64,000 nucleotides of DNA, taken from UHGV virus genome UHGV-0311442, one strand, 5' to 3'. Positions 7,301 to 49,721 of the stretch are shown in pieces (position 1 is the stretch's first letter; each line of letters starts with the position of its first letter). The DNA comes from a virus. The translations under genes were made by a program, and so were the position numbers. The notes under the pieces are model-generated. The model did not search any database, was not told the origin of the DNA, and saw only the letters and a program-made list of their open reading frames with translations.

Positions 7301-10300
7301 TTTCTGGGAAGGCAGGAACGGCGGTAAACAAAGCTGTGACTTTACCGAAGAAACTTCTGGGTTTCATTTCGCCTAAAGCGGCTTCGTTGTTCGAGAAAGC
7401 ACGCGAGTGGTTAAATGAGGTTCCAGAGGGTGCAGAGAAAACCCGTTTACAAAGCATGATTTCCCGCGTAACGGGAATGCCAGCTCGTCTGTGGAACAAT
7501 GCAAAACGTGGGTTTGAGAAGCTCAAAGAGTTGGCTTCTGATAATCCGTTGACACGTTGGTGGCAGAACCGTAAGGAAGGGGGTTCTGGTGGTGGGTTTA
7601 GTGTGTTCTCATGGTCGAATGGCCGTAAAACTAACCACATCTTAATCCGTATCTACAAACTCCTTAACCGGAGATTGCCAGGTGAACCTGAAGATGACAC
7701 CTGGACAGAACAGATGGAGCGGAATACGGGGGCCAGTTCAGTTAAAGGATTATTCCAACGTGCTAAGGACATACGCGAAGGGTTCCGTGAACATTTTCAA
7801 GGGTTCCGGGATTGGCGTGGTCGGATGCGTGACAGAATGTCCCGTTACCGTAGTGCGGTAGGTGGTCGTCTTTCTCGTTGGGGTGGTGCAGCACGTGATT
7901 GGTTTGACCGTTTCCGTGGTCGTGCAAGCGATATGGTCGATACCTTCCGTGATCCGCGTTACGACATTGGAACACGTTATCGAATGGAGAGTCGTTTAGC
8001 AGGACGCGATGACGACGTTGCTGAGTTTTATCGTCAACACATCTACGCAAGAGGCAAGGTGTCTAAAACACGTATCATCGATGCGGCAAAAGAAGACTTG
8101 GATACCGTAACGGATAGCGCTGGACGTGTGATTAATAAAGGGAAACAGAAAGCCCGTAGCGTTGGGTCGGTTTTACTGGAACGCCTGAACCGAATGGTTA
8201 ATCTTCAGGAAATGTCGTGGTTTAATACCATGCGTGATTCTGCGGAAAAAGCAGGTGCTTCGGATGGTTTGTTAAGAACCATGTTCAGTAAGTTCGGTCA
8301 ACGTAACAAGCCACCTGCCAGTGATGAAAAACGCGATTACTTCCAGTTCTTCCGACGCCGTCGTCGCTCTAAGGAAGAGGAAAAGGCTAAGAAAGAGGCT
8401 GAGAAGAAAGGCGGTAAACGTGGGGTAATGGATTTCCTTAAAGGACTGCCGTTGGTAGGGCCGATTGTGAGTATTTTAGGCACAGTGGGTTCAATCTTAG
8501 GTAAAGTCGCAAAATGGGGAATCTTTAAGCCGGTTGGGTTTGCAGGTAAAGCGTTGTGGAACGTTGGTAAGTTTGCTGTGACCCGTTTGGCTGTTCCTGC
8601 GGTGAGTGCTGTCGCGACGGCAGCATCTGCAGTGGTAACTGCGGTTGGCTGGCCGATTATCGGTTTGGTCGCTGCAGGCGCTGCGCTGTCTTGGTTTGCG
8701 TATAAAACTGCAACCCGTGTGAATGCTCAGTATCTGGATAACATGCGATTGGCACAGTACGGATTTAGAGATCACGATGAGTGGTCTTCCGACGATGGCG
8801 CAAAAGCACGTTATTTAGAAGACAACTTGAAACCGTACATCTCTTATACAGAGAATGGCCAAGCACAGTTGCGTGGTTTGTCCGGTGACGACGTGAAGAA
8901 ACTGGCCGAAGGGTTTGGTACTAACGTAGAAGACAAAGGCGAAATGCTGGCGTTTACTGCGTTTATGTTACAACGTTTTGTGCCGATCTATTTACGTTGG
9001 ATTACGGCACTGAAATCCATGGATAATGATATCGCGTTAGCAGATGTCGGTAATCCTGCGAAAGTGTCGAAAGCGGACATGCTTACCATCTTTAACAAAA
9101 TGAAGATGACAAAAGATGCGCCTGCTTTTAAATCACTGACAGACCCCCGTAAAGTTAACCAAGGCTGGTTCTCTAAAGCGTGGGATTTCGTGACCTTCAC
9201 ACCGGCAGAATTTTTGTCAGGTGAAGAAGTTGTCGAAGCACAAGATCGTGTTTTCCGGTCTATCAACATGCGCCGTGACGATAAGCGTAAGGAAACAACT
9301 GGAGCCGGTGCTGTGCCTGAAGGACATAAAGTTGCTTCTGTGGCAGAATCTTCGCAGGTACTCGCGAAGAACGATACCGAGCGTAACGAAACTGTTGCTA
9401 AAGCTGAGGGTTGGGAAGACGGTACTGAACAGGTTCAAATTCAAGTTGACTGGAGAGCATTACCTGAGAAGAAAGATTTGGACGCGATGGAATCCGTCCG
9501 TTGGAAATCTTACGGTGTGAAATCTGTTAATGAGACAACACGTACCCTCTTTAGGTTGCTTGAGAAAGAAGTGTTGAAAGACACGGATATCAAAAATTGC
9601 ATTTATAAGGGCGATTGGAAGAAAGCAATTTCTGCGATTGCGCCTGATGCAATTGGTGGCCCAAAAGAGGAGCGTTACAAGAACTGGTTCTATAATCGAT
9701 TCTTACCTGTATTCATGACCTACGTTTATGGTGTAAAACGCTACGTACCTCATGCAGATCCGTTGGATTTGAAACTCACAGGGGGTTTCCTCTATGAGCT
9801 GGCACTGATGATGCGTGGTGCTTACAACATGAAAGGGGGTATCCGTCAGTCTGTGTGGGAAATCGCATTTAACCCGTTAGGAGGCGATGCGAATACCGAT
9901 GCAGGTTCAGTGAGGGAAGAATTAGCAACGCTGAAAGAGTTGTCTAAAGAACCCGATCTGGCTGTAAGGAACATGCTCAAAGAAACACCGAGCACACCTA
10001 AGCGTATGACATGGAAATCGCCAGCGACAAACTCCAGTGTCCATCAGACGAATGAAGATAACAAAGAGCGTTATAAGGGAATTAACAGCTATGGCGAAGC
10101 TTCAAACGACGGATACTTACCGAAAGGTGGTCAGTCCTACGGTACGCCAGGTGACTTATCACAAGTTGTTGGCGATATGGGTATAGGGAACTATGCGAAG
10201 TATTCCACTGGACAATCTGGCATCACCCTCGGTGAGTTACAAGACGGTGATTACAAATCGTTAGTGACTAAATACCCAAGGGAAATGCTTGGCAAACCGA

Positions 10301-11514
10301 TGCAGTCAAATACTGAAGCCATCAAGTCATTGATTATTGACGCGGCAAACATGGTGGGTGTTCCACCATCTGTTGCGATTGCAATGGCACAAGCAGAATC
10401 TGGCTTACAGTATGGCAACTATCCTGGCGCATCCTCTGGTAGACCGAGAAGTAATAAGATGTCTGCCGCTGGCCTGTTCCAATTTACCAATGGCACTTGG
10501 AATGGGGTTATGAAGCAGTACGCCCGAAGATACGGTATTCCACAAACCGACCAGTTCGACCCGTGGGCTAACGCAATCTTAGGTGTTAACTTCATTAGAG
10601 ACAACATCAAGACCGCACAAAAGGATCTGGGTGGAATTGCCCCACCTCCGGCAGTAGCGTACCTATACCACTTCTTAGGCCCAGGTGGTGGTGCTGAGTT
10701 CCTTAAAGCCTGGAAAACCAATCCTAACGGGTCGCCCGACAAAGTGAAGTACATCACACCTGCCGTTCTTAACGGTAATGAAGGTGTTTTCTATATCATG
10801 AACGGGAAGAAACGCGTTAGGATGCGTACGATCGGTGAGGTTGTCGAGGAACTGAACCGCCGTATGGGTGCGGTTGGAACCAACGAGATTGCAGCAAATC
10901 CTGCGTCTGCGAAAAACATGACGAAAGGGTTATCACCAGTTCCATCGTCTCCTGCAATTGCTGCTGGCGCAGCTAACGATCCGTCTATTGCTGGTCCGGC
11001 AGATAACCTGCCAGCCGCGAACGAGGCGAATCGTGACTCCGCTTTAGCAGACAAAGGTGCGATGGGCGCTGAAGATATTAAAGCTGCAACGGGTGGTGGT
11101 CCGGCTGTGCCGAGTCCTGGCGGTGACGTCACGCCAAGTGATGCGTCTGTCGTTGTTGAAACGGTGGGTCAAAATGCGCGTGCTGACGGTCTGGGCGAAG
11201 AGGAAGTTGCCAAAGTAAAAGAAGGTGCTAGACAGCAAATGGAGAAATCCGCACGTCCTGCACCAACGGTAACGTCTGATGCACAGACTACACCAACAGT
11301 GAACAGTGGTGATCCGATCAGCGTACAGCAGCTGGCGGTTGCAAAAGAGTCTGCGGGCTATCTGAGAGAGATTGTAACAATTCTTCGTCAGAGACCACAG
11401 GCTATGCAGCCATCCCCAGCGACCTCGGCAGCTTCTGCTCCGGGTTCAGCATCACGTAACATCGCGGTTGAACAACCTGCCCGCCAACTCGACGTTGGTC
11501 GTAAACGGGCGTAA
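4348..11514 (+). CDS. Giant virion/ejection protein with transmembrane segments and lytic transglycosylase (SLT) domain
   Basis: 2388 aa, ATG at 4348. Acidic N-terminus (DDFDEIDLDNMDDWDDFDE), poly-basic GRKRRRKRKR, hydrophobic segment cluster (about nt 8420-8710), SLT motif AMAQAESGLQYGN...AAGLFQF...YLYHF (about nt 10300-10790), Ala/Pro-rich tail. Confidence 0.85.
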   Translation: MAKKGKDDFDEIDLDNMDDWDDFDEPPRQQDQSRNPVMDTFRAARKSALSTIWPENKRDQVILKGMPKPAAEAYEGYQNVKAAGQDILAHTKDEIEKTSRVVKMQARQLGPTLKRYLPESVTRKIDKWARNDQIDYGNYDPKQAMMDRELDSVFSGAPQTADQQREAQEGMVEDRLRDTIKDMKSDALFQTVIGIAKDVNLTTSLSRGVLLNVQRKQLELQYRTLFALQDIAKLKQDEFARNTPALEAIVKNTALPDYAKEEFSEIRWANVKRKAAEWMNPLHYADNFIGQIRENAKKKISNIFSDGRGILEQVLGMAQEDDFDMSDSSSLSPDRRNTNSRNKAAGFAGGWLAKRLLQPQIERLQNWTRGELEKNPEVMKRLQLAKYGFGNLSSISNSAIAGETSGPLADLFRLMHDLGLVNPLRRETLALDDRSAESLSAAAKFDRKAYLSITEVIPTLLSEINKSIRRGYGEHHDQVYDLTTRGMVDRKVIGNRVRKAVANDDQRKRLQTYINDTVDFIDKDKTLDRKTRQALADYIESRASEGKAFDVGSLLKDPMHMYRYMNANAVEAIQGVLEARSAELVGGHHELSNAISNKIAAIQSTIRARQDTVDAASVIYGENALRDSGIFKYDAKKDIFEVDKDINDPYTLFNDLSMGKTRSGRSLTREQEIQRKLQNGSALGDYLRRMGAGAEPSFEDKELSNVRGGGKGGRGRGLSARQLAAVLYGEKSTNFVELLSSRPDTNAGLEQQFDRLIDAVRKQPESSIVQDILKHVKNMDEEGILLASLGGSRDDGDEPESSGESGRKRRRKRKRIVLGETGLLRRWAGVLWDTGSGVGRFGKNLFLRGKDRLQALGGFIRGKFSGGSSEGPGVFSRLKGLVTGTLSTGWNSAVAFGKGVLGVRDIYDERGNVVLQGSRLEAGEYYQADPKTEKLIQLKTLDDIKLGRDIVDEAGNLILAAADLAAAGKLRFYKGGKVQALFQYISGKAGTAVNKAVTLPKKLLGFISPKAASLFEKAREWLNEVPEGAEKTRLQSMISRVTGMPARLWNNAKRGFEKLKELASDNPLTRWWQNRKEGGSGGGFSVFSWSNGRKTNHILIRIYKLLNRRLPGEPEDDTWTEQMERNTGASSVKGLFQRAKDIREGFREHFQGFRDWRGRMRDRMSRYRSAVGGRLSRWGGAARDWFDRFRGRASDMVDTFRDPRYDIGTRYRMESRLAGRDDDVAEFYRQHIYARGKVSKTRIIDAAKEDLDTVTDSAGRVINKGKQKARSVGSVLLERLNRMVNLQEMSWFNTMRDSAEKAGASDGLLRTMFSKFGQRNKPPASDEKRDYFQFFRRRRRSKEEEKAKKEAEKKGGKRGVMDFLKGLPLVGPIVSILGTVGSILGKVAKWGIFKPVGFAGKALWNVGKFAVTRLAVPAVSAVATAASAVVTAVGWPIIGLVAAGAALSWFAYKTATRVNAQYLDNMRLAQYGFRDHDEWSSDDGAKARYLEDNLKPYISYTENGQAQLRGLSGDDVKKLAEGFGTNVEDKGEMLAFTAFMLQRFVPIYLRWITALKSMDNDIALADVGNPAKVSKADMLTIFNKMKMTKDAPAFKSLTDPRKVNQGWFSKAWDFVTFTPAEFLSGEEVVEAQDRVFRSINMRRDDKRKETTGAGAVPEGHKVASVAESSQVLAKNDTERNETVAKAEGWEDGTEQVQIQVDWRALPEKKDLDAMESVRWKSYGVKSVNETTRTLFRLLEKEVLKDTDIKNCIYKGDWKKAISAIAPDAIGGPKEERYKNWFYNRFLPVFMTYVYGVKRYVPHADPLDLKLTGGFLYELALMMRGAYNMKGGIRQSVWEIAFNPLGGDANTDAGSVREELATLKELSKEPDLAVRNMLKETPSTPKRMTWKSPATNSSVHQTNEDNKERYKGINSYGEASNDGYLPKGGQSYGTPGDLSQVVGDMGIGNYAKYSTGQSGITLGELQDGDYKSLVTKYPREMLGKPMQSNTEAIKSLIIDAANMVGVPPSVAIAMAQAESGLQYGNYPGASSGRPRSNKMSAAGLFQFTNGTWNGVMKQYARRYGIPQTDQFDPWANAILGVNFIRDNIKTAQKDLGGIAPPPAVAYLYHFLGPGGGAEFLKAWKTNPNGSPDKVKYITPAVLNGNEGVFYIMNGKKRVRMRTIGEVVEELNRRMGAVGTNEIAANPASAKNMTKGLSPVPSSPAIAAGAANDPSIAGPADNLPAANEANRDSALADKGAMGAEDIKAATGGGPAVPSPGGDVTPSDASVVVETVGQNARADGLGEEEVAKVKEGARQQMEKSARPAPTVTSDAQTTPTVNSGDPISVQQLAVAKESAGYLREIVTILRQRPQAMQPSPATSAASAPGSASRNIAVEQPARQLDVGRKRA

Positions 11515-19222: not shown

Positions 19223-19228
19223 TAGGTG

Positions 19229-29190: not shown

Positions 29191-29215
29191 TTTAATGCTC
29201 CTAAACACTTTTAGC

Positions 29216-35456: not shown

Positions 35457-35495
35457 GTTGAATTCTCCTGTTAGTCTACATTAAAATAGTCGTAA

Positions 35496-35542
35496 ACGTT
35501 AAAAAGAAAGACCCTCCTGTACCACGAAAGGGTACAGGAGGG
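35496..35542 (-). terminator. Rho-independent terminator (minus strand)
   Basis: Stem CCCTCCTGTACC/GGTACAGGAGGG, loop ACGAAA; A-rich run on the plus strand upstream. Confidence 0.6.
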
Positions 35543-35546
35543 AGTG

Positions 35547-36005
35547 TCAGTACAAACACGATGTCAAGTATTGGTTATACGAATCGAGCAGTGTCTGACG
35601 GTCGGAACGGTAATTCCACAACAAATTATTGAGTTTACGCGATAAATCACGGCTAATCTCTTGGGGCGTTAAAGAACTTTCATCAAGAGATAAGCGTTCA
35701 GGTACAACATGTAACTTCGGTAACTCATAACGTTCACAAAGTGGAGCCAGCATTGGTGGGCTCCAGCCACGTTTAACGGCTTGTTGGTTTAAATTTCGGG
35801 TGTAGACATAAACGTAGTAAGCATAGGTGTTGACATCCGCAACATACTCACGCATTGCATTATTGTCAATTTTCCAATTCACCATTATTGGCGGTGTAGG
35901 AGGAAGTTCCAGTGGCCTATAAGCTGGACGTTTAACTTCGTCGCCGTAGCTATTACTCACCAACCCCACGAACACCATCATGATGAATAACAGCATTTTC
36001 ATCAA
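35547..36005 (-). CDS. Secreted Pro-rich protein with N-terminal signal peptide (152 aa)
   Basis: N-terminus MMKMLLFIMMVFVGLVSNSYG then PAYRPLELPPTPP; no lipobox Cys. Confidence 0.5.
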   Translation of the reverse strand: MMKMLLFIMMVFVGLVSNSYGDEVKRPAYRPLELPPTPPIMVNWKIDNNAMREYVADVNTYAYYVYVYTRNLNQQAVKRGWSPPMLAPLCERYELPKLHVVPERLSLDESSLTPQEISRDLSRKLNNLLWNYRSDRQTLLDSYNQYLTSCLY

Positions 36006-36509
36006 TCACTCCTTAGAAGACGTTAGCGTCTTTATGATCTCCTGTCGAAAACTGTTCGCATTTAAATTGCCAACAGGTCTCGCCGAAGCCTCTTTACGTT
36101 GTTCTGGTGTTGAAGCTGGATTAACAGGAGTTTCTGGTTTTGTCGAAGACAGATCCTTCGCCGTACCGCTCGCTTTCGATGAATTAAACGTGCTTTCATA
36201 TGGCGGTTTCTGGCCGAGGCAAACGAAGAGCCTGTCGTATAACTTCCCATTATCTTCTTTTAGTTTATCTCGATCTTGTTTCATCTCTTGGTAAGACTGC
36301 GACATATAAGTGTCATGAGACTGCACTGCAACGAGCGCGTGAAACTGTTGTACATAGGCGTAGGAGACGAAGCCAGAATACGACAACAAGATCGTGATGA
36401 TTAAAGTCATTATCTTGCTTGCTCTTGATACGTTTTCTCCTTCTCCTGGTTTAAATGCTTCCATTAACATCTGAAGGAAGAACGGAAGCACTTTAAAAAA
36501 TGAACCCAT
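36006..36509 (-). CDS. Membrane protein with one internal TM helix and coiled-coil region (167 aa)
   Basis: Hydrophobic segment IMTLIITILLSYSGFVSYAYV then charged heptad-like segment; abuts the downstream secreted protein gene. Confidence 0.5.
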   Translation of the reverse strand: MGSFFKVLPFFLQMLMEAFKPGEGENVSRASKIMTLIITILLSYSGFVSYAYVQQFHALVAVQSHDTYMSQSYQEMKQDRDKLKEDNGKLYDRLFVCLGQKPPYESTFNSSKASGTAKDLSSTKPETPVNPASTPEQRKEASARPVGNLNANSFRQEIIKTLTSSKE

Positions 36510-36534
36510 TGCTCACCTCGGAGTATTTTTAATT

Positions 36535-37908
36535 ATGTTAGACTTACAAGGTTTTATTCAGATACCGGCACTGTTTGACAATCAGGACGGCGTCACCGCT
36601 CCGGTGGGCGAGCTGTCGGATTTGACACTCTCGTACGCGAAGAGTAAACAGACGTTTACTAAAACCAATTTGCAAGTTCAATTGGTGACTTTTACGTCTA
36701 AACGAGAAAAACAGACGGTTGTTGTGCCAGCCGAGTTTTCTGATCATATTCTAACCGTTTCTCAATGGATTTACCAGCAAGCCATCTTGGGGAATCTGAG
36801 AAATGACGAACTCGAATTCCAGCGCCTGTTATTAGGCCAATTCCAATCAACCATTTCTGGTGTTCAGTCTGGTGCGATGATACAGACGAACAGTAACTGG
36901 TTCCCACGTTGGGTGAGCTGGAAATATGAAGTAACGGCAGATCAAGTACAAGATGACACTGATGTAGATAATCAGATCATTGTTTGGTTCTCGGATGAAG
37001 ACTTCGATCAAGATTACACAGGGTTCGAAATCGAAGTACAGATGCCGATTTCACCAATCGACACATTTTTGTCGACCAAGTCAGTCGTTGAAAAGGCGAT
37101 GGAAGGGTTTAACCTTACCGAACACCATAAGAAAATCAATGAGTTAATGGCAGGGTTTCCTTACACCGCTATCCAAACCAACTACTATACTTGGCACGAT
37201 CAAGAAAACTACGAGTCCACCCTAGTTGTCCCAATGTCGGTTATTATTTACGGACGTGCGGGGAAAAACCCAACGAAAATAAAGCAGGCGTTGCGAGAAC
37301 ATATTCTCGCTAATTCCAGCTTTACTGTCCCTGTCGGGGTAAAAGTATTTCCCGAGATTTTCACTACCACGAAATTTACAATTGTTCCCGGATGGAAAAT
37401 TCGTGGAATACCCAATGAGGAAGATGTGGCGGCGCTTTATTCCCCCATCCTTCCATATGATTTCTGGGTCAAAGCTATCAGTCGGTTTGGAGAATGGGCA
37501 GACCTGACGGTAGCAGAAAGAAATACTAAAACGATCAGTAAACCTACAACAGACGTAACTGACTTACCAACAGTTTATAAATCATTAAACTGTGTTGTAA
37601 TCAGTGGGCCGGAAAACGATACACGGAAAGCGACCTTACACGAAACTATCCCGGATTATGCGTTAATTGCGACGACTAACCCTGATATTGCGCGTATGTC
37701 GAAAACAACGACCGAATGGTTGGCGTTATTCTTCCAGGCACTTATTGCTGCGGAAGAATACCACCCGTATCAAACCAGCTTAGATGTTGTAAAACTGGTC
37801 GATGAGGCCGACCCTGATAACTACTTCTGGGTGTTTGAATACGACAACGTAGAATATCGTATCCTGTCTCGGAAAGCGAAATGGTACACCGAGTTAGACG
37901 AGGAGTAA
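36535..37908 (+). CDS. Hypothetical protein (457 aa), plus-strand island
   Basis: ATG at 36535, 25 bp from the divergent minus-strand gene start. Confidence 0.6.
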   Translation: MLDLQGFIQIPALFDNQDGVTAPVGELSDLTLSYAKSKQTFTKTNLQVQLVTFTSKREKQTVVVPAEFSDHILTVSQWIYQQAILGNLRNDELEFQRLLLGQFQSTISGVQSGAMIQTNSNWFPRWVSWKYEVTADQVQDDTDVDNQIIVWFSDEDFDQDYTGFEIEVQMPISPIDTFLSTKSVVEKAMEGFNLTEHHKKINELMAGFPYTAIQTNYYTWHDQENYESTLVVPMSVIIYGRAGKNPTKIKQALREHILANSSFTVPVGVKVFPEIFTTTKFTIVPGWKIRGIPNEEDVAALYSPILPYDFWVKAISRFGEWADLTVAERNTKTISKPTTDVTDLPTVYKSLNCVVISGPENDTRKATLHETIPDYALIATTNPDIARMSKTTTEWLALFFQALIAAEEYHPYQTSLDVVKLVDEADPDNYFWVFEYDNVEYRILSRKAKWYTELDEE

Positions 37909-37911
37909 TGA

Positions 37912-38535
37912 ATGGCTACGCGTTTACCACTCCAGGTACCGGTCAACACCACGGGACTGTTCAAAGTAAAAACACCATTTACTTTGGCCGAGACGGTCAT
38001 TTATACGGTAGAAGCGTCACGTACCTTCCCAGATTTAGTACGTCAGAATATTGACGTTTATAACTCGTATTACCAGCCAGTAGGGCTAGGACGTGAAGAA
38101 TATTTAGCAGATGCGAATGTTAGTGCGTCGATTCTGACATTTAAATCTCGGGACGGTCAAGTTGTATATATACCTGACACCTACCTGGAATCATACCCAG
38201 GTTTATCCGGGATCACGTATCAACGAAATGTGTTAGTGGTAGATTTGGCACTGGTACCGGATTACGTGAAAGTGTCGTCTATAACAAAAGACGTTTCAGA
38301 TATTCTCACGCATACACTAGGGATTGAGCCGAAAGTTGAAATTACAACACTCGAGTATGAGGGGAAGGTAACGGAGGAACAACACTTGCAGATGGAAGCG
38401 GCACGAAAAAATAAAATTCGTGAATCTATTCCATTAGGTGAGAAAGTTGCTGCGTTGACAGAAGAGAACAAAAAATTAAAAGAGTTAAACAACCAAATGT
38501 TAGAGATTCTTAAAGCTAACGGGTTAGTTAATTAA
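37912..38535 (+). CDS. Hypothetical protein with C-terminal coiled coil (207 aa)
   Basis: ORF 3 nt after the previous gene; C-terminus EENKKLKELNNQMLEILK. Confidence 0.55.
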   Translation: MATRLPLQVPVNTTGLFKVKTPFTLAETVIYTVEASRTFPDLVRQNIDVYNSYYQPVGLGREEYLADANVSASILTFKSRDGQVVYIPDTYLESYPGLSGITYQRNVLVVDLALVPDYVKVSSITKDVSDILTHTLGIEPKVEITTLEYEGKVTEEQHLQMEAARKNKIRESIPLGEKVAALTEENKKLKELNNQMLEILKANGLVN

Positions 38536-38580
38536 AAAAGATTACCCTACTCCTTCGGGAGTAGGGTAGCTTTTATTTTA
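38534..38580. terminator. Bidirectional rho-independent terminator
   Basis: Stem CCCTACTCC/GGAGTAGGG, loop TTCG, A-run upstream and T-run downstream. Confidence 0.75.
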
Positions 38581-39129
38581 AATGTCGACTTCTAGTTTAC
38601 GGTAATCGATGACGCCTTGAGCAATCATAGCAGCAACATCGTTCCAAGTACGAAAAATGAAGTAAACGGTATCCCCGTTTAAATAGATATTGGATTCTTT
38701 ATCCGGGAAATCATCTTCACTGAGGTAGTAGTAGGGTTTGTCGAATGGGAAGTCACGTTCATCAGAGGAACCAAGTACCGCATAACGATTGCCACAATCA
38801 AACAGAATCTTCCAACCAGACATTTCACTATTAGCGTCAATACGATCGTCGATTTCAACGGTAATAGGAGAATGATCAAGAAAGCTGATTGTAACCTCCC
38901 CGTTATGTTGTCGTTTGAATCGATGAATATCTGTAGGCACAATTTCAGATGCTGCTATAAGGGAATAAAGTTGCGTTACGGTGATCTTTTTGTAAACACT
39001 ATCGCCATCCCACAAACGATCAAATAAGAAATTAGCCAGGAAATTTATATCCTTTAAACGTGAACGGAAAACAGAGCCACGACGAATACCGTAAGCCAGA
39101 TGAGTTAAATATTCAGACGATGGAAACAT
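38578..39129 (-). CDS. Hypothetical protein, member of a tandem paralog pair (183 aa)
   Basis: N-terminus MFPSSEYLTHLAYGIRR and internal GDTVYFIFRTWNDV match the neighbour's MTFPSEVIYELANTLRR and GGVVYFILSNWSHV. Confidence 0.55.
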   Translation of the reverse strand: MFPSSEYLTHLAYGIRRGSVFRSRLKDINFLANFLFDRLWDGDSVYKKITVTQLYSLIAASEIVPTDIHRFKRQHNGEVTISFLDHSPITVEIDDRIDANSEMSGWKILFDCGNRYAVLGSSDERDFPFDKPYYYLSEDDFPDKESNIYLNGDTVYFIFRTWNDVAAMIAQGVIDYRKLEVDI

Positions 39130-39145
39130 TTTAATACTCCTAAGG

Positions 39146-39184
39146 TGGAAAAAAGAATTAACCCTACTCCCGGAGGAGTAGGGG
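39146..39184 (-). terminator. Rho-independent terminator (minus strand)
   Basis: Stem CCCTACTCC/GGAGTAGGG, loop CGGA; A-run on the plus strand upstream. Confidence 0.65.
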
Positions 39185-39191
39185 ATTTAAA

Positions 39192-40124
39192 TTACTTTTT
39201 GGTTTGACCCAGGTTTTCAAGAACCAGCTCACGAATGTACTTCTGAGTACGTTTCTTCGGTGGTAAAGCCATAAGGGTGTCAACGATTCCCTGGCCGCCG
39301 ATAACCTTGCTGACGAGTTGTTGAACTTGGAAGAGTTCTGCTTCTTCGTCGCTAATTTCGTTAGCTTGGTCTTTCTGACACAATGCTTCTACCAGGTCAG
39401 CTACGGATATTTCATTTTCGTCACCAGGGAAATCCAGGTTTAACGATTCGAAAACATCACGCTTAACGAGCACAGATTTCAGATCATCGTAGTTTTCACA
39501 AACGGCGACTTCTGTGCCAGGTACCGTTTCTTCTTCGTCTTGATCTTCATTCTCAGCGGAGAGGTAACTTACTTCTGTTGCGTGGAATGTTGCGTCAGCT
39601 TTTCTCAGGACGTAGCTCACATGCGACCAATTGCTCAGGATGAAGTAGACAACACCCCCATTTAATCCGATATTGCCCTGGCGAAGTTCGAGAGCAATTT
39701 CCAGGCGGCGTGAAATCTGCCCCAAGTCAAAGAAAGACTCGTCGCGTGCCGCAACAACTTCGTACTGATTCACCCCTTGTTCTACAACAACGAACCAGTT
39801 ATCCGGGAGAGGATACGGGTTGCGCATGAAAGAAAGTTCGTTCCCTACGCCTGGGTCAACAGTAACGGATGTATGGCGCATTCCCATGGAGAAGTTGAAC
39901 GTATCCCCATTTAGAACCGCAATTGCACCGTCAATCGGAAGAATTTTGGTGGTACGATCAATAGAGAAAATCTCTTTCTGCGCAATTGAAGGCTGATTAC
40001 TGCCTAGGAAATGGTTACGCAGAAAAGCAGCGGTTGGGCCTAAGCTGGCTTGCAGTATATGGTAGTTATAACGACGACGCAGCGTGTTAGCCAGTTCGTA
40101 AATTACTTCAGATGGAAAAGTCAT
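39192..40124 (-). CDS. Hypothetical protein, larger paralog of the pair, acidic C-terminal half (310 aa)
   Basis: Shares N-terminal and central segments with the 183-aa neighbour; D/E-rich C-terminal region. Confidence 0.55.
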   Translation of the reverse strand: MTFPSEVIYELANTLRRRYNYHILQASLGPTAAFLRNHFLGSNQPSIAQKEIFSIDRTTKILPIDGAIAVLNGDTFNFSMGMRHTSVTVDPGVGNELSFMRNPYPLPDNWFVVVEQGVNQYEVVAARDESFFDLGQISRRLEIALELRQGNIGLNGGVVYFILSNWSHVSYVLRKADATFHATEVSYLSAENEDQDEEETVPGTEVAVCENYDDLKSVLVKRDVFESLNLDFPGDENEISVADLVEALCQKDQANEISDEEAELFQVQQLVSKVIGGQGIVDTLMALPPKKRTQKYIRELVLENLGQTKK

Positions 40125-40177
40125 TTTAATAGTCCTCTTTTAGGTTTGTTCAAATCAACTAAGGGTTATGTAAAAAG

Positions 40178-40657
40178 TTAAAATAATGGCAAGTTACGCC
40201 ATTGCCCTACCGAGTAAAAAGCTTTTGGATGTTTACGGATATACGCTTTCGCTTCTTCTGGCAACCAACGATCGCCTACCAGTTTTTGTTGTGCAACAAT
40301 TACCGCCATCAACAAATACGGATTTTTCGCACCGGGGAACTTTGCATTGGTTTCTAGCGCAATATCCAACATTGACGACCAGCCCAATAATTTATGTTGC
40401 GCCGGTAAACGTTCTTCAATATACATCAGCCATTTCATGATTTGTTTAGGCTTATACGGACAGGTATAATTCGCCCAACAGACCATGACGAACTTAATAG
40501 CCTTCGCAATCACCCATACAGGGACAGTCACGAAAAGGCAGAAAATGGCCAACTGCGAGGCGGGCGCTTCGACAAAAGTAATCGCCACAAGGACCATAAA
40601 CAATTCAAGTACCACAAACCAAAAACGCGTTGGATAACGCCAAATGAATTTTATCAT
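40178..40657 (-). CDS. Integral membrane protein with multiple hydrophobic segments; holin candidate
   Basis: 159 aa with at least three hydrophobic stretches; two genes downstream of the secreted lytic transglycosylase in the same transcriptional direction. Confidence 0.35.
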   Translation of the reverse strand: MIKFIWRYPTRFWFVVLELFMVLVAITFVEAPASQLAIFCLFVTVPVWVIAKAIKFVMVCWANYTCPYKPKQIMKWLMYIEERLPAQHKLLGWSSMLDIALETNAKFPGAKNPYLLMAVIVAQQKLVGDRWLPEEAKAYIRKHPKAFYSVGQWRNLPLF

Positions 40658-40680
40658 AACTCTGTTCCTTTAGGGAATGA

Positions 40681-40718
40681 AAATAAAAGTACCCCTTACT
40701 CCGTATAGGGTAAGGGGT
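40681..40718 (-). terminator. Rho-independent terminator (minus strand)
   Basis: Stem CCCCTTAC/GTAAGGGG with 10-nt loop; A-rich run on the plus strand upstream. Confidence 0.5.
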
Positions 40719-40723
40719 AGAGG

Positions 40724-41233
40724 TTAGAAGAACGGCTGGTTTGGAATGACAGCGTACTCTAAAATGAACATGTGTTCTGGGGCGTCTTCTTTACGCCAGA
40801 CTTTGTGCGTCGTCACAAGTTTTTCCAGAATCGTTAAAAAACTACGCTGGCAGTATGTGTTTTCACCAAGCAGTAGATTTTGAAGTTCTACAGTAGCGTC
40901 CATATACGCCTGTTTAAAGACTAAACTACGATTATACTGTCCGGTAAAATTCCAAAGCAAGACTTTCCCTTCTTCGGTTTCTTTTACCGTTGGCCGTAAA
41001 CCACAAATCCACAACAAGGCAAGGTTGACGTTCCAGTCAAACTCTAAACCTTCTTCTTCGTCATCACCGAATGCTGTGGGTAAAGCATCGTAAAATTCGT
41101 GTTTCTCTGCGAATTCTTCATCTGACTTAATCTCGTCTTCGATGCTGCTTCGGACGATACTGTAAACGTCTTTCGCGGTCAATTGTGCGGCTTTTGTAAT
41201 GCCTTTATACCAATCGGTTACTACGATGCTCAA
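40724..41233 (-). CDS. Hypothetical protein (169 aa)
   Basis: ORF between the lytic transglycosylase and the membrane protein. Confidence 0.5.
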   Translation of the reverse strand: MSIVVTDWYKGITKAAQLTAKDVYSIVRSSIEDEIKSDEEFAEKHEFYDALPTAFGDDEEEGLEFDWNVNLALLWICGLRPTVKETEEGKVLLWNFTGQYNRSLVFKQAYMDATVELQNLLLGENTYCQRSFLTILEKLVTTHKVWRKEDAPEHMFILEYAVIPNQPFF

Positions 41234-41955
41234 AGGGTAACTCCTCTATTGATTGGAAAACTCGTGTTTATCGTATCCCAAATTTTACTAACTTCCGCCA
41301 ATTGAATCTGACGTGGTGTTTTCTTCGCAAACGCAAGCTGACGTGGGGCCGAGCCCACAACAACAGGCACATCGATTTTCGCGCTATAGAACGCGGCGTC
41401 TTTCATAAAGCCTGCCATTTCTCGTTGTGCTGCTCGAGATTTGCTTTTGATTCGCGTGTGAGCGCCACTTTCACCCCAGTGGTAAGCTAACGCAACTTCA
41501 GCCATGGTGGGCTTGCGTTTGAGTCGTTTGGTTAACCCCTTTTCAAGATGTTTAACATACGCGGCAGCCAGCAAAACAGCATTACGCGGATTATACAAAT
41601 CGGCGTTCTGACTAAGACCTAATTCTTTTCCATAAAGCCTTAGCAGATTACGCTTGGTACTTGGAAGCATCTGTACCAGGCTGTGTGCTCGTGAGCTTTT
41701 GTTGTAAGCCTTGGGATCAAAACGCGATTCACGATAAATCAGCGTAATCATCAGCTTAGGATCAACGCCTTGCTTTCGAGAGATTTCCACAATTAACGGG
41801 CTGACTTTTTCGAACCGATGTTGGATTTGTGTAAACTCACGCTGATGCTTAGATTGCGGCGTTGATGTTGACGCCTGTGCGTTAAACGCGAAAAGTGTTA
41901 CCAGTAAAAGAAAGAAGATACGAAACATTTTGTTTCTCCAGTTGGATTTATACAT
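41230..41955 (-). CDS. Secreted or signal-anchored soluble lytic transglycosylase; endolysin candidate
   Basis: N-terminal hydrophobic segment MFRIFFLLLVTLFAFNAQA, then SLT motif LIYRESRFDPKAYNKSSRAHSLVQMLPST. Start may be the internal Met at about 41928. Confidence 0.6.
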   Translation of the reverse strand: MYKSNWRNKMFRIFFLLLVTLFAFNAQASTSTPQSKHQREFTQIQHRFEKVSPLIVEISRKQGVDPKLMITLIYRESRFDPKAYNKSSRAHSLVQMLPSTKRNLLRLYGKELGLSQNADLYNPRNAVLLAAAYVKHLEKGLTKRLKRKPTMAEVALAYHWGESGAHTRIKSKSRAAQREMAGFMKDAAFYSAKIDVPVVVGSAPRQLAFAKKTPRQIQLAEVSKIWDTINTSFPINRGVTL

Positions 41956-42020
41956 TTCCGTATTCCGTAAGACGAAATGACGGCGCGGACAGCTAATACT
42001 CCTTTGTTGTGTGCCCTAAT

Positions 42021-42031
42021 GATAATATCTA
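42021..42031. promoter_or_regulatory. Copy of recurrent motif GATAATATCTA
   Basis: Overlaps the stop of the macro-like gene, upstream (in minus orientation) of the lytic transglycosylase gene. Confidence 0.3.
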
Positions 42032-42589
42032 TTTAAAAGAGTTTGGAATTAATGACTCTGCTTCTCGGTACAGCTTATCGGGTAAGTATAACGTGTAGTG
42101 TTGTCTCCTCGGTTCAAGTTTTTTGTAAAGCCACAAAAAGATTTCTTGTCTTTCCCAGGAATCTAACCACCCATTTGCCATCCCCAGTGGAGGGATAGCA
42201 ACGCTGGTATCCAGTTCCTCAACACAATCTGCTAATGCGGTAATGCCCGCAGTAACATAAGAAACCTGGGACTTTAAACGCCAATGTGTTTTCGTTGGGA
42301 GCAAGATGCACTTTTCATCAGGGTAAACGTAAACGCTTCCAATCTTAATTTCGTCTTCGCGACACCGCTTACGGTAATCTTGATAAAGGTTGGGGTAGCG
42401 TTCACGGCACGCCAGTGCAATACCGCGACCCATCGCTCCTACGCAGTTAATGGTAACGACTTTATAGTCTTCGGGCGCATTAAAAAGATCGTTACCAATT
42501 TCAGATTCTTTACGTACCGTTAACATAACGAAACGCCCGGAGTTGATGTGTAGTATTAAAACGTGTACCGCCGATTGATAACTCGACAA
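42029..42589 (-). CDS. Macro-domain-like protein (putative ADP-ribose binding or processing)
   Basis: YKVVTINCVGAMGRGIALA fits the Gly-rich macro loop pattern and SVAIPPLGMANGWLD fits the second macro motif; probable start at internal Met near 42526. Confidence 0.4.
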   Translation of the reverse strand: MSSYQSAVHVLILHINSGRFVMLTVRKESEIGNDLFNAPEDYKVVTINCVGAMGRGIALACRERYPNLYQDYRKRCREDEIKIGSVYVYPDEKCILLPTKTHWRLKSQVSYVTAGITALADCVEELDTSVAIPPLGMANGWLDSWERQEIFLWLYKKLEPRRQHYTLYLPDKLYREAESLIPNSFK

Positions 42590-42613
42590 GTATAGCGATA
42601 TATGTTTTACCCA

Positions 42614-43725: not shown

Positions 43726-43854
43726 TTAAAACCAACGCGCGATGACGAAAGCCGCAGCGGCTAATATGGCTGTGGTGATTATTAACCCACCCCATGAAAG
43801 TTCCGCGTCGTATAGTGCGGATATCGCTACATTCGTAGCGTTTATCGTGGTCAT
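43726..43854 (-). CDS. Small hydrophobic peptide (42 aa)
   Basis: ATG with GGAGCAGAAA upstream; MTTINATNVAISALYDAELSWGGLIITTAILAAAAFVIARWF; below ORF-track size cutoff. Confidence 0.3.
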   Translation of the reverse strand: MTTINATNVAISALYDAELSWGGLIITTAILAAAAFVIARWF

Positions 43855-43911
43855 TTTCTGCTCCTATCAATACCCTCACACCGGAGGGTATCTTCTGGAT
43901 TATTTGGGTGG

Positions 43912-44010
43912 TTAATCTTCGAACGCCCAACGGTGTCGTTTAATCAGCCAGTTTAAACCTTTACCAATTAACCACAACGAGCCAAGTGTTAACAGAACCC
44001 CTACAACCAT
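43912..44010 (-). CDS. Small hydrophobic peptide (32 aa)
   Basis: ATG with AGGAGAGG upstream; MVVGVLLTLGSLWLIGKGLNWLIKRHRWAFED. Confidence 0.3.
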   Translation of the reverse strand: MVVGVLLTLGSLWLIGKGLNWLIKRHRWAFED

Positions 44011-44020
44011 ATTCCCTCTC

Positions 44021-44200
44021 CTAATTCCGCCATTCGCATTCGCGTTGACGCCAAATTGAACCCCACGATAGTTTAATCAGATAAGATGAAACTACCCATA
44101 AAATCATCACCACACAAAACATGACATAAAGAACCGCTAGAATGGACATGAAGCCAAACCCTGCCGCATCCACAATACGACGGAACCAATCAGTTTGCAT
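44021..44200 (-). CDS. Small membrane protein (59 aa)
   Basis: ATG at 44198-44200 with AAGGAG upstream; hydrophobic core FGFMSILAVLYVMFCVVMILWVVSSYLI. Confidence 0.4.
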   Translation of the reverse strand: MQTDWFRRIVDAAGFGFMSILAVLYVMFCVVMILWVVSSYLIKLSWGSIWRQRECEWRN

Positions 44201-46694
44201 AAACAATTTTTACTCCTTCGTTATACACCGCAGGCAATGTCACCCCTTCCGGTTCGATGACACAGTACGATGCTTCATTAAGTTTAGAATGAACCTCGGC
44301 TTCGTGGGAGACTACCAACAGTTGTGAAAATTCTCCTGAGTTTGCTAACGTTTTAATAAAGCCGACCAGGTTGTTACGGTGCTCCTCATCCATGCCCTCC
44401 GAAGGTTCATCCAAAAGCAACGGAAACTGATGCAACTTCAGCGCTTTGTACGCAGTCAGTCTGAACATCAGATTAAATATCGCACGCTGCGCCTTTGACC
44501 CTTTACGCACGTCAGGAACAGGCTCAGGATGCGTTTTTAGCTGGACAGGAAAAGTATAATCCAAATCGCCGTCAGTGAGATCACAAGGCATAACACGCAT
44601 GGGGTACGTCCAGACCTGTTCGATATAACGCGTCATTAACTCTGTGATTCTAACGATAGCGTTGTAAAAATACTTTCTAAGTACACCCTTTTCTGGCGAG
44701 AAGGCTTGAATCATCAGTTTGTTATTGAACTGCTGGGCTTGTAAGTCAGCAAGTTCGCGTTCCAAACTGTTGAGCTGGTTCAATTCATTTTCCATCTGAC
44801 GATAACGTTCGCGTGCGGTTGTAAAAGCATCCAGCTTCCCTTCTCGTGTACGTAAGAGTTCCTCGACGACCGTATTTGTCAACGTAACCTTAACGTCACT
44901 CTCTAACCGTTCGAATAACGCACTGAAATCATCTACAGCACGTTTAACATTCACTAGATAGGTAAGTGTCGTGTTAGCCAGTTCGTGCTCTCTACGACGC
45001 ATTGAGAGCATCTCTGTGGCTTTACCTAATCGCGACTGTTGGAAGGCGATCTTTTGTTGTAAAGCACCATCGACGTTACCAACGGCCGCTACGGCATCCT
45101 GCCATTCTTTTTCCGCCTTCACTAACCGTTGTCTGGTTTCATGGTACTCAATAGCAGAGTACAACTCACCGTCAAACGCTGCGCATAGACTCCCGAACTG
45201 CTCGCGAGACTCTGTGAAAACGTTACGTTCTTGCAAACGCTTAAAGAACATACTCAAAACAGGGTCCTTTGAATACGTCAGTACAATCTCACGAACCTGC
45301 CGCATATAAGTTACATCAGATTCTAATTCAACACGATCGCGTAATAAGGTCTCTAACTGCGTTTGCAGTTCCGTGCGCTGCTGTTGCTGTCCACGAATCG
45401 AAGACTCAAGTTCAGGCAAAGAACGCGTAACGCCTGGTCGAAACTTAAACCGACACTGCGGACAATCCACTTCCGCTGTTTCTAAGTAGTGGTTACGTTC
45501 GTGATTTAAATTCTGTAAAACGTTCTCCACTCGCTGGAGTCTATCCCGCAACCCGGCGGTTTTTTGATCCATCACCAGAAGCCGTTCTTCCAAAACATTG
45601 AGTTTTTCGGTCGAATGAATTGCGTCCAGCGTTGTTCCTAACCGTTGTCCCCAAACACGCGCGTCGGTAGCCGCACGAAGTTGGTCTAAATTGACGTTAT
45701 CGTTAAATAGACCCGGAAAGAGATGTTCAGTGTCCCATTTGGTAAGTAACTCACGTAAACGTGCCAGCGTATTCTTGAGACCTTCGTGATTCCGCATCAG
45801 GTAGTCCTGTCGTGTCGACTCATCCATCAATAACGACAAGTCTTTATTCAACATCGATACCTCTGTTTCAGTAGACACGACAGCTTCGCGGGCGGTCGCC
45901 TCGTTTTGTCGTGCGACCTGTATCTGTTCATCAGTAGGCAGACCACCACGATGTTGTAATATTGCGTCGATGGTTGGACCCAAGCTGTTTAATGACGCTT
46001 GGATTGTTTCGATGGTGACGCCGCGATTTAATCCTGGCAACTGTTCGATTTCTCGGTTCAGTTCACGTAAATCCGATTCCAAACCTTTTAATCTCGTCGC
46101 TAACTGCTGCCGTTCTTCCTCGTTCTCAATAACACGCGTCCGTAATTCGGCGATCTTACGGCTGGTGATTTCAATACCCCCATTTAAGGCAGTAAGGTTT
46201 TTACGTAAACGTTGATAAAACCCTAACGCGTAAGTGAGGTCAGAGGTGCTTAAACGGTAAAACCACTTGCGACGTAATTCGGTTCCCGCATCGGTTAACA
46301 AGACCTCACCATTTAATAGTTCTTTAATTTCTTTCGTAATACCCGTGATTTCTTCAACACGGGAGTTGTAGACTTTCGCATTACCTTGCTCGACGATCTT
46401 TGCCCCCGTGGTCAGGTTCTCAATATCACAAACCAAAGAGTTGCCTTTACGGGCAACTTTGAATCGATAGCGTTGATCGCCGACTAAACAGTAATTCGTG
46501 TAAGAACCGCCGTCCCTGAATTCAGTTTTAGCTGGTGCTAAGGGTAAGAACACAGACAGTAGACTGGTTTTCCCGCAGCCGTTCCCACCCAGGATAATTG
46601 TTGTTGGAGACTGGATAGTGAAATCGAAGGTTTCAATTTCATGTAACCCCATCCCCGTAAAACCTTTGAGTATAATGCGTTCAACTTTTAGCAT
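44190..46694 (-). CDS. Rad50/SbcC-like ATPase with coiled coil and CxxC zinc hook
   Basis: Start refined to ATG at 46692-46694 (GGAGGTG upstream; track start is TTG at 46769). Walker A GGNGCGKTS, long coiled coil with central CPQC, C-terminal LLLDEPSEGMDEEH and VVSHE. Confidence 0.75.
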   Translation of the reverse strand: MLKVERIILKGFTGMGLHEIETFDFTIQSPTTIILGGNGCGKTSLLSVFLPLAPAKTEFRDGGSYTNYCLVGDQRYRFKVARKGNSLVCDIENLTTGAKIVEQGNAKVYNSRVEEITGITKEIKELLNGEVLLTDAGTELRRKWFYRLSTSDLTYALGFYQRLRKNLTALNGGIEITSRKIAELRTRVIENEEERQQLATRLKGLESDLRELNREIEQLPGLNRGVTIETIQASLNSLGPTIDAILQHRGGLPTDEQIQVARQNEATAREAVVSTETEVSMLNKDLSLLMDESTRQDYLMRNHEGLKNTLARLRELLTKWDTEHLFPGLFNDNVNLDQLRAATDARVWGQRLGTTLDAIHSTEKLNVLEERLLVMDQKTAGLRDRLQRVENVLQNLNHERNHYLETAEVDCPQCRFKFRPGVTRSLPELESSIRGQQQQRTELQTQLETLLRDRVELESDVTYMRQVREIVLTYSKDPVLSMFFKRLQERNVFTESREQFGSLCAAFDGELYSAIEYHETRQRLVKAEKEWQDAVAAVGNVDGALQQKIAFQQSRLGKATEMLSMRRREHELANTTLTYLVNVKRAVDDFSALFERLESDVKVTLTNTVVEELLRTREGKLDAFTTARERYRQMENELNQLNSLERELADLQAQQFNNKLMIQAFSPEKGVLRKYFYNAIVRITELMTRYIEQVWTYPMRVMPCDLTDGDLDYTFPVQLKTHPEPVPDVRKGSKAQRAIFNLMFRLTAYKALKLHQFPLLLDEPSEGMDEEHRNNLVGFIKTLANSGEFSQLLVVSHEAEVHSKLNEASYCVIEPEGVTLPAVYNEGVKIVYAN

Positions 46695-47980: not shown

Positions 47981-48370
47981 TCAATGATCTAATTCAATAG
48001 CACCAGCCATCTTGCCCCGTTCTTCGATAACAATCAGATAACGGTCGCGAGATTTGCTTTTAGCGAGAGTTAAGACAACAGTAGGGTCGCATGTTTTCGT
48101 GGTGATAGGAAGAACCTCTCTTTCGACGGAATCGAGCAGAAAGTAATAACCTGCGGGACACATTGTGCCACCGTCAGCTTTTACCAGAATATAGCGCCCG
48201 TCTGCGCCGACTTCTTGGCAGATTGTTTCACCGACTTCGCAAACTTCAAACCCCGGAGGATTGTACTGATAATCGGTATTGTTGTTTGGGGTTAGCAGTA
48301 AATCGTTAACTTGAGTAGATGCTGCTACACTCAGGGAGAAGAAGAATGCTAAAACGCAGACGAGACGCAT
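47981..48370 (-). CDS. Secreted Cys-containing protein S1 (129 aa)
   Basis: Signal peptide MRLVCVLAFFFSLSVAAS; CEVGETICQE and GRYILVKADGGTMC match S2. Confidence 0.55.
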   Translation of the reverse strand: MRLVCVLAFFFSLSVAASTQVNDLLLTPNNNTDYQYNPPGFEVCEVGETICQEVGADGRYILVKADGGTMCPAGYYFLLDSVEREVLPITTKTCDPTVVLTLAKSKSRDRYLIVIEERGKMAGAIELDH

Positions 48371-48380
48371 GAGTTACTCC

Positions 48381-48791: not shown

Positions 48792-48802
48792 GATAAAAGT
48801 CC

Positions 48803-49288: not shown

Positions 49289-49306
49289 TGTAACTACTCC
49301 TTTAGA

Positions 49307-49699: not shown

Positions 49700-49721
49700 G
49701 CACTCTAAAAAAGATTAATAG

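Follow-up and report, generated by a model that had tools for sequence, protein, structure and literature searches.

The window analyzed here, 64,000 nucleotides (nt) of the virus genome UHGV-0311442, holds two loci of candidate lysis genes: a gene for a putatively exported lytic transglycosylase of the SLT family (41230..41928, minus strand) and a spanin-like gene pair (36006..36509 and 35547..36002, both minus), whose products we call the i-partner and the o-partner. We put at roughly 0.5 the probability that the two loci form a dispersed envelope-disruption module flanking two tail genes, as in phages SPN3US, Asesino, and CR5. Most of this module would plausibly be an ordinary new member of an arrangement that is already annotated in relatives. 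What is new, and real, is a fixed and selected loss of the lipid anchor in an o-spanin orthologue. Among the nucleus-forming jumbo phages considered, lysis has been dissected only in phiKZ; a literature search found no such work on SPN3US-like phages and no study of lysis in Seoulvirus-like phages or in the proposed genus "Bapsvirus." The two loci raise the questions of whether, in a Gram-negative host, a transglycosylase with a cleaved signal peptide could time lysis as an endolysin, under what restraint it would then be kept, and whether an o-spanin orthologue could function without its lipid anchor.

The window phage is a Seoulvirus-like, nucleus-forming jumbo phage. Its proteins are 50–84% identical to their counterparts in three nucleus-forming jumbo phages of the Chimalliviridae type: phiEaH2 and Asesino, which infect Erwinia, and the Salmonella phage SPN3US. 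No near-identical DNA to the region was found by megablast among 50,697 phage records, and relatives were reached through protein searches and then through an Escherichia coli "plasmid" record. Exact and 90% cluster look-ups place window proteins on hundreds of ~222–228 kb contigs from isolate assemblies of Salmonella enterica, Shigella, and E. coli. The phage fits the proposed "Bapsvirus" lineage, a genus defined from bacterial-assembly-associated phage sequences of ~226 kb that are syntenic with Seoulvirus and have never been cultured (PMC12768965). The "plasmid" record, NZ_CP173450.1, is a complete circular sequence of 221,873 bp from urinary E. coli 98232, is 82% identical over 35000–42600, and served as our whole-genome proxy for the lineage.

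Gene order at the two loci is shared with relatives. On the minus strand lie genes for a macro-domain protein, the SLT enzyme, a 169-aa (amino acid) protein that we call p8114, a 159-aa membrane protein, and proteins of 310 and 183 aa; next come two tail genes on the plus strand, namely a DUF7194 gene and the orthologue of SPN3US gp203, an essential tail protein (PMC5105663), and then the membrane/secreted pair, an exonuclease, and RNase H. This order matches SPN3US gp196–207 (gp198–205 being the synteny counterpart that covers both loci), Asesino gp217–226, CR5_177–186, and L006, a relative that is 77–95% identical to the window. Both loci are conserved across ~60 to 137 phage records, so their features are not due to chance. 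All four open reading frames (ORFs) named in a preliminary description of this DNA are present on the minus strand with the features it gave them, after correction of two start codons (to 41928 for the SLT gene and to 36002 for the gene of the secreted protein).

Loss of the lipobox in a spanin-like pair

The spanin-like reading of the pair is supported independently by prior curation of its orthologues. The preliminary description had seen a membrane protein with a periplasmic coiled coil that abuts a secreted proline-rich protein and had found the two reminiscent of a spanin pair; the architecture holds, and the resemblance extends to orthology with a catalogued pair. The 167-aa i-partner matches phrog_8719 (1.2e-58) and the 151-aa o-partner phrog_8165 (1.7e-41), both of which are labelled unknown function. 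Their respective homologues CR5_183 and CR5_184 are listed as a "separated" i-/o-spanin pair in the Young laboratory census (Kongari et al. 2018, PMC6139136), which assigns CR5_183 a coiled coil at residues 66–99 and CR5_184 a lipobox, MLTG↓C (arrows mark cleavage sites). SPN3US gp204/gp205 and Asesino gp223/gp224 are likewise orthologous to the window pair and have the same adjacency and the same neighbouring tail genes, and in 58–62 records of SPN3US-, Erskine-, Machina-, and CR5-like phages the pair is always adjacent. Identity to the lipidated SPN3US orthologues is 51% for the i-partner and 42% for the o-partner.

As predicted from its sequence, the i-partner has the type II transmembrane domain (TMD) and the helical, coiled-coil periplasmic domain of an i-spanin. 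It comprises an amphipathic N-terminal helix, a TMD (aa 33–53, 36351–36413, minus; from hydropathy and alignment), a charged coiled-coil region, Cys97, a Pro/Ser/Thr linker, and a C-terminal helix. The alignment shows the same succession of conserved amphipathic N-terminus, TMD, coiled coil, invariant Cys, Pro-rich linker, and C-terminal helix, and CR5-type i-partners share the TMD, coiled coil, Cys, and linker. The extra amphipathic helix at the N-terminus is atypical for an i-spanin. The two genes are adjacent, the i-partner stop codon (TGA, 36006–36008) lying 3 nt from the o-partner ATG at 36002, which is most likely the true start of the ORF at 35547–36005 and has AAGGAG 6 nt upstream. Five nt after the pair stands a strong intrinsic-terminator-like hairpin (35512..35542, minus; minimum free energy [MFE] −23.6 kcal/mol, z = −6.0) with a 12-bp stem that includes 8 GC pairs, plus a T-run, and its place directly after the pair marks out a self-contained bicistronic unit.

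The o-partner has no lipobox, and because its orthologues have one, this absence is the most interesting point about the pair. The preliminary description was right to state that a lipobox is missing: no Cys occurs before residue 89 of the 151-aa form, and the protein thus lacks the lipobox Cys, without Asp at +2, of a lipoprotein. Its N-terminus, MKMLLFIMMVFVGLVSNSYGDE, instead reads as a signal peptide of the SPase I type (aa 1–20, VSNSYG↓DE; 35943–36002, minus), and its residues at −3 and −1, Ser and Gly, fit signal peptidase I. Lipoboxes are present in SPN3US gp205 (LLTG↓C), Asesino gp224 (LLVG↓C), CR5_184, pEa_SNUABM_6 (LLAA↓C), and the Machinavirus orthologues. Among 19 representatives of full-length, 90%-identity clusters recovered from 5.8 billion proteins, 17 have a lipobox Cys at position 15 or 16 and none has Asp at +2 (one of the 17, with LCS↓C, was counted by eye since the search pattern disallowed Cys at −2). 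The lipobox is absent only from the window cluster, which reads MKMLLFIMMVFVG-L-VSNSYG↓DE, and from its 77%-identical sister cluster, which reads MKLLLFIMILCVG-L-VSNSYG↓EP and whose Cys11, with Leu at −1, is not part of a lipobox. The window lineage has thus replaced the lipobox Cys, with FVG-L-VSNSYG↓D against the LxG↓C of the CR5/SPN3US type, a family whose assignment is itself computational.

This loss is real and fixed in the window lineage. The 28 cluster members examined, which show 15 distinct N-terminal sequences and come from the two clusters (272 member sequences in total), without exception keep G-L-VSN[SG]YG and have no valid lipobox. Between the window and L006, dN of the o-partner is 0.14 with saturated dS, similar to neighbouring genes, and the protein is therefore maintained by purifying selection; pseudogenization was rejected on the same dN/dS comparison. 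A sequencing error or frameshift that hides a lipobox was also rejected, as the DNA reads cleanly and the 28 variants from two diverged clusters agree. A lipobox scanner that recovered every orthologue's lipobox as a positive control gave nothing credible in the 64-kb window as a lipoprotein ORF that could be a replacement o-spanin. In the complete 221.9-kb genome of the relative, the scan returned only two unrelated lipoproteins, each standing alone with nothing i-spanin-like beside it, and a further spanin-like pair was not seen. One of the two, of 159 aa (LAS↓C), lies on the opposite strand at a gene cluster of this relative (L012 33248–35713), and the other, of 47 aa, lies at L013 40722–40865.

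The mature o-partner also departs from the short, proline-rich, unstructured form of a canonical o-spanin, with 131 aa, 12 Pro, and two helices. It consists of a Pro-rich linker and a predicted hairpin of two helices, with an invariant aromatic helix, VADVNxYAYYVYxY, and conserved Cys89 and Cys149; the aromatic helix and two Cys are also found in CR5-type o-partners. An AlphaFold2 model (pLDDT 76 overall, ~85–90 in the helices) contains a helix for the signal, a tether (aa 17–46) that is Pro-rich and disordered, and helices at aa 47–77 and 113–147 (31 and 35 residues), and the bridging of residues that flank Cys89 and Cys149 in this model suggests a disulfide-stapled hairpin. The fold has no match in the PDB at E<1, and on this result we rejected a role as an inhibitor of lysozymes or transglycosylases (Ivy/MliC/PliC or Spackle-like).

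By orthology with the CR5 pair, the i-partner and o-partner would act together to disrupt the outer membrane once the wall has been cut. For the anchorless o-partner, the prediction is a helical hairpin that is cleaved and soluble in the periplasm; speculatively, it would dock on the C-terminus of the i-partner and use its invariant aromatic helix, not a lipid anchor, to engage the outer membrane. Wimley–White interfacial free energies for this segment are favourable (−2.4 to −3.6 kcal/mol per 19-mer), from which we propose, speculatively, a contact with the outer membrane in place of the lipid. The full proposal, that the "Bapsvirus" lineage uses a natural, lipid-anchor-free o-spanin in which the inner-membrane partner captures a soluble, disulfide-stapled hairpin whose aromatic interfacial helix then attacks the outer membrane, is a long shot, with the odds clearly against it.

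The window pair resembles lambda Rz/Rz1 in having a type II coiled-coil inner-membrane protein, a partner gene directly downstream, a periplasmic Cys, and a proposed periplasm-spanning complex; however, the two pairs have no sequence similarity, and the genes are embedded in lambda and separated in the window. Rz1 is a 40-aa proline-rich lipoprotein (PMC6139136), whereas the window o-partner is a helical protein of ~130 aa and not a lipoprotein. Several points weigh against a spanin role. The CR5 call is computational; its curators describe the two proteins as "best candidates" and flag them as "very long" and "too long N-terminus?" (PMC6139136). Even where it is lipidated, the o-partner is atypical, with ~130 mature residues and two long predicted helices, and in the window it lacks the lipid anchor by which o-spanins are defined. 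We thus regard the window pair as one that apparently "works like, and descends from, a putative spanin," and not as a canonical two-component spanin.

Another envelope role is the principal alternative for the pair. It could act, for example, in superinfection exclusion or in periplasmic control of murein hydrolases, where the lipid anchor of the secreted partner would be dispensable and a whole lineage could therefore lose the lipobox. T4 imm and sp, adjacent genes for a membrane protein and a secreted periplasmic protein, offer an analogy from superinfection exclusion. In favour of such a role are the retention of a strongly conserved o-partner after loss of its lipobox and the large, helical build of the protein, unlike that of canonical o-spanins; the CR5 assignment is provisional, and the pair heads a run of nucleic-acid-metabolism genes and is not beside the SLT gene. 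On the other side, the 17 of 19 clusters with an outer-membrane-type lipobox, the full i-spanin anatomy of the i-partner (type II TMD, coiled coil, periplasmic Cys, and partner gene immediately downstream), and the lack of any other spanin candidate, either in the complete lineage genome or in the hands of the CR5 curators, all speak against such a role. So do the lack of a fold match of the o-partner to a lysozyme inhibitor or other solved protein and a PADLOC search that gave no known defence or exclusion family. We consider this alternative unlikely, at about one chance in four.

The lipid anchor of lambda Rz1 is required for its function. Simple loss of function, with a crippled spanin step contributing to carrier-like persistence in a lineage for which the only records are hundreds of isolate assemblies of Salmonella, Shigella, and E. 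coli and which has been proposed to spare its host while persisting (PMC12768965), is nevertheless very improbable, because the anchorless protein is under strong purifying selection with its VSN[SG]YG c-region kept across 28 variants, the i-partner is intact, and Seoulviruses with an intact lipobox are equally common in isolate assemblies.

If the pair does act as a spanin, lipidation would not be obligatory for two-component spanin function, and the change of anchor may tune lysis in phages that persist carrier-like; alternatively, all members of this "spanin" family in SPN3US-like phages may have another function. Clinical assemblies of Salmonella, Shigella, and E. coli contain the lineage in which the anchorless variant is fixed, on hundreds of contigs of ~225 kb. 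Since this lineage has never been cultured, the manner of its exit from cells, or its failure to exit, is relevant to the carrier-state hypothesis. The lipidated SPN3US orthologues provide a natural control pair for complementation of lambda Rz/Rz1.

A candidate endolysin with a predicted export signal

The 232-aa product of the other locus is an SLT family 1 transglycosylase by domain content. It matches Pfam PF01464 well above the curated threshold (E=1.1e-14; 54.5 bits, cutoff 21.3) and phrog_4067, transglycosylase (1e-47), and its catalytic Glu lies in an E-S motif, E76-S77, that is invariant among the six orthologues aligned. The closest solved structures are MltC, phiKZ gp144, and EmtA; gp144 is 29% identical over the catalytic domain only (BLASTP E=4e-11). 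Orthologues are annotated as "putative endolysin" in SPN3US, Asesino, and CR5, and the CR5 curators remark that "Endolysin is at 178," CR5_178 being the orthologue. Together with an N-terminal export signal, these annotations uphold the preliminary description's view of the enzyme as an endolysin candidate.

The true start of the gene is almost certainly the ATG at 41928 (M10 of the ORF at 41230–41955), because it is preceded by GGAG at a distance of 7 nt and is the start used in all orthologues. The corrected N-terminus, MFRIFFLLLVTLFAFNAQA↓S, contains a predicted signal peptide (aa 1–19, ending NAQA↓S; 41872–41928, minus) found by alignment of orthologues. Six orthologues share the pattern of M-[FKL]-R, a 12-residue Phe/Leu-rich core, and [NH]-[AS]-x-[AS]↓[SI], so that the n-h-c regions and the (−3,−1) site are conserved, and from this anatomy we infer export and cleavage. 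The protein has no Cys at all and is therefore not a lipoprotein.

The preliminary description had left open whether this N-terminus is a signal peptide or a signal anchor. Signal-anchor-release (SAR) domains are uncleaved, longer TMD anchors rich in Gly and Ala. The hydrophobic core of the SLT enzyme, IFFLLLVTLFAF, has only 12 residues, of which two are weakly hydrophobic, and is followed by the conserved AxA↓S site; it does not resemble an uncleaved TMD of ~20 residues rich in Gly, Ala, Ser, and Thr. With fair confidence, we read the N-terminus as a classical cleavable Sec signal peptide and not as a SAR domain; the exported SLT enzyme of the preliminary description thus stands and its signal anchor does not. 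An N-terminal export signal is also shared with the SAR endolysins P1 Lyz and phage 21 R21, from whose uncleaved Gly/Ala-rich domains the window signal differs in being short, Phe/Leu-rich, and terminated by AxA.

Both SAR endolysins and Sec-exported endolysins restrained by the proton-motive force (PMF) have been described, and activation of either class is expected upon membrane depolarization (PMC6116005). By analogy, the PMF-restrained "e-endolysins" appear to be the only precedent class for regulation of the window enzyme. Lys44 of Oenococcus phage fOg44 has an N-terminal export signal and reaches the wall without a holin, although it is a different enzyme from a Gram-positive phage, whereas the window enzyme would act in a Gram-negative host. 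Sec would export the soluble SLT enzyme and signal peptidase I would cleave it, so that, like Lys44, it would reach murein without a holin hole. Its activity would presumably be held back until the membrane depolarizes.

At least two muralytic domains are encoded in the window, and, as the preliminary description had surmised, one belongs to the virion. Besides the SLT enzyme, a tail-associated protein of 2388 aa (4348..11514, plus; phrog_3201, "tail," E=0) contains an internal SLT domain at aa 1995–2093 (nt 10330–10626; Pfam SLT, 2.6e-8), which is the virion's own transglycosylase as assigned by Pfam and PHROG matches.

An endolysin role for the secreted SLT enzyme is plausible but contested, because a GH108 muramidase bears the name "endolysin" elsewhere. 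The lineage encodes this serious rival outside the window: the complete relative NZ_CP173450.1 has a cytoplasmic GH108+PG_binding_3 muramidase (E=1.4e-21 and 1.6e-16), and orthologues with 65% identity occur in Machinavirus and other relatives, named "endolysin" in RefSeq for Machina, Huxley, and CR3/CR9. In NZ_CP173450.1, the muramidase gene is clustered (L012 33248–35713) with genes for a DUF1353 protein and an M15-like peptidase, the latter recognized by eye from an HxxxxxxD...H motif and without a Pfam match, and a shared assembly (ID964) ties the GH108 region to the window-type lineage. These enzymes weigh against the SLT enzyme as the endolysin.

The SLT enzyme could accordingly be an accessory remodeller of periplasmic murein, involved in swelling of the infected cell or in aiding lysis, with the GH108+PG_binding_3 muramidase as the true endolysin, released through a canonical holin. 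A constitutively exported and cleaved transglycosylase would indeed need extra restraint to act as a timed endolysin, and the muramidase has the company of the DUF1353 and M15-like proteins, the lineage link through ID964, and the RefSeq names in its favour. But the GH108 gene adjoins neither a membrane protein nor a spanin, its neighbours being tail-fibre-like (DUF7941), radical-SAM, and DUF1353 genes, and its orthologues in relatives are surrounded by radical-SAM, DUF4376, and tail-chaperone-like genes and are not beside holins or spanins. The SLT enzyme, by comparison, is the nearest relative of the proven phiKZ endolysin's catalytic domain, lies ~4.7 kb from the spanin-like pair, and would belong to an established class of Sec-exported endolysins (PMC6116005). 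We regard the accessory role as a possibility to be taken seriously, at rather less than even odds.

The window locus is not a lysis cassette of the phiKZ type and has only the SLT fold in common with it. In the contiguous phiKZ cassette gp141/141.1/142/143/144, the endolysin is cytoplasmic and is released by a class III holin; the cassette also encodes a regulator located in the cytoplasm and an o-spanin that is a lipoprotein (Manohar et al. 2026, PMC12894885). As in the window, phiKZ is a nucleus-forming jumbo phage with an SLT-type endolysin domain, spanins, and a cytoplasmic protein encoded beside the lysis genes; however, gp144 has a peptidoglycan (PG)-binding domain where the window enzyme has a signal peptide, and the window candidates are split by tail genes. 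BLASTP for homologues of gp141, gp141.1, gp142, and gp143 matched only the SLT domain, with nothing else at E<0.03. A structural model of p8114 compared with BFVD gave no gp143-like structure, and the tail genes, used to look for synteny with the cassette of phiKZ, gave no matches. Absence of sequence similarity to the proven phiKZ holin, regulator, and spanins counts against assigning the window genes to lysis.

Candidate membrane triggers and neighbouring genes

Depolarization in the dispersed module would be triggered by a membrane protein, either the 159-aa product of the gene at 40178..40657 (minus) or one of three small membrane ORFs within 43726..44206 (minus). The former is a weak holin- or pinholin-like candidate recognized by hydropathy. 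Its hydrophobic block (residues 8–62) forms two TMDs (~12–29 and ~36–57) that are followed by a soluble domain of ~95 aa, and an N-in/C-in topology is predicted because positive residues flank both TMDs. It matches phrog_20030, labelled unknown function (9e-8), but no holin family in PHROGs, and it has no match at all in Pfam, NCBIfam, or PADLOC. When 1.84 billion representatives were scanned exhaustively with HMMER, five matches came back, and the real relatives among them are only a direct orthologue, its truncated copy, and two 161-aa proteins of the same architecture; this architecture is found in phage records P0055 and P0056 and in two Machinavirus paralogues.

The preliminary description proposed an endolysin–holin arrangement of the SLT gene and this 2-TMD gene, of which the two TMDs and the position as the second gene downstream of the SLT gene stand; a holin assignment is weak, because topology alone backs it. 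Homology to holins is lacking, the family is tiny, and the gene is not clade-wide: Asesino and CR5 have no membrane protein at this slot, SPN3US has there an unrelated 86-aa 2-TMD protein (gp200), and Machinavirus has two paralogues. A terminator-like hairpin with a U-tract (40690..40719, minus; MFE −18.6 kcal/mol, z = −3.9) stands between the p8114 gene and the 2-TMD gene and parts the latter from SLT–p8114. The tiny family, the empty slots, and the hairpin all weigh against a holin partner at this position.

The three small membrane ORFs downstream of an SMC-like gene, identified by TMD scan, are equally good or better candidates for holin or antiholin than the 2-TMD protein. They encode 61 aa (44021–44206, minus, overlapping the end of the SMC-like gene), 32 aa (43912–44010, minus), and 42 aa (43726–43854, minus), and have homologues at the same position in SPN3US, Asesino, and L006 (phrog_16515, labelled unknown function). 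One of them could be the holin or membrane trigger, with the 159-aa protein unrelated and lineage-specific. Conservation of both position and sequence in SPN3US, Asesino, and L006 argues for this, as do their orientation with the SLT gene ~2 kb upstream of it, their holin-like size, and their charged C-termini, alongside the tiny, patchy family of the 159-aa protein with its absence from Asesino and CR5. However, holins are notoriously non-conserved, and three of five lineages consistently have membrane proteins in the slot of the 159-aa gene, given gp200 in SPN3US and the two Machinavirus paralogues; no candidate of either kind has a holin-family match. We think it doubtful, though by no means far-fetched, that the trigger is a small ORF to the exclusion of the 159-aa protein.

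Immediately downstream of the SLT gene, and coupled to it translationally by a TTGA overlap with GAGGAG 6 nt upstream, lies the gene for p8114 (40724..41233, minus), an acidic, conserved, cytoplasmic 169-aa protein of phrog_8114. Downstream of the 2-TMD gene and before the next strong terminator is the gene for the 310-aa protein (39192..40124, minus; phrog_11818), which is related to SPN3US gp201 and Asesino gp220 and is probably not a lysis gene. Strong bidirectional terminators follow both the 310-aa gene (39162–39183, both strands; hairpin scan, MFE) and the 183-aa gene (38578–39129, minus). A GC-rich hairpin, CCCTACTCC-loop-GGAGTAGGG, recurs at 38542–38569, 39162–39183, and ~19170–19225 as an intergenic, terminator-like, partly bidirectional element. 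A scan for sigma-70 promoters gave fewer matches than in shuffled sequence and is uninformative because the phage has its own RNA polymerases.

The 183-aa and 310-aa proteins have similar N-termini, MFPSSEYLTHLAYGIRR and MTFPSEVIYELANTLRR, which suggests a duplicated or split gene in the lineage; this shared N-terminus also resembles those of SPN3US gp201 and Asesino gp220. In six records of Salmonella SPFM phages, several proteins resemble scrambled versions of gp199 and gp205 with their segments shuffled, suggesting artefacts of assembly or annotation.

Two further regions of the window drew our attention. For the genes at 28291–30142 (minus), two orthologous genes of L006 (15852–17682) carried a prior label "AcrVA2-like" (PF26125), which was not reproduced for the window proteins (hmmscan against Pfam, no match at E<0.01). 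At 47981–50183 (minus), five consecutive genes encode proteins of 129–161 aa, each with a typical N-terminal signal peptide; none has a Pfam match, four match PHROGs labelled unknown function, and together the genes form a block of secreted proteins.

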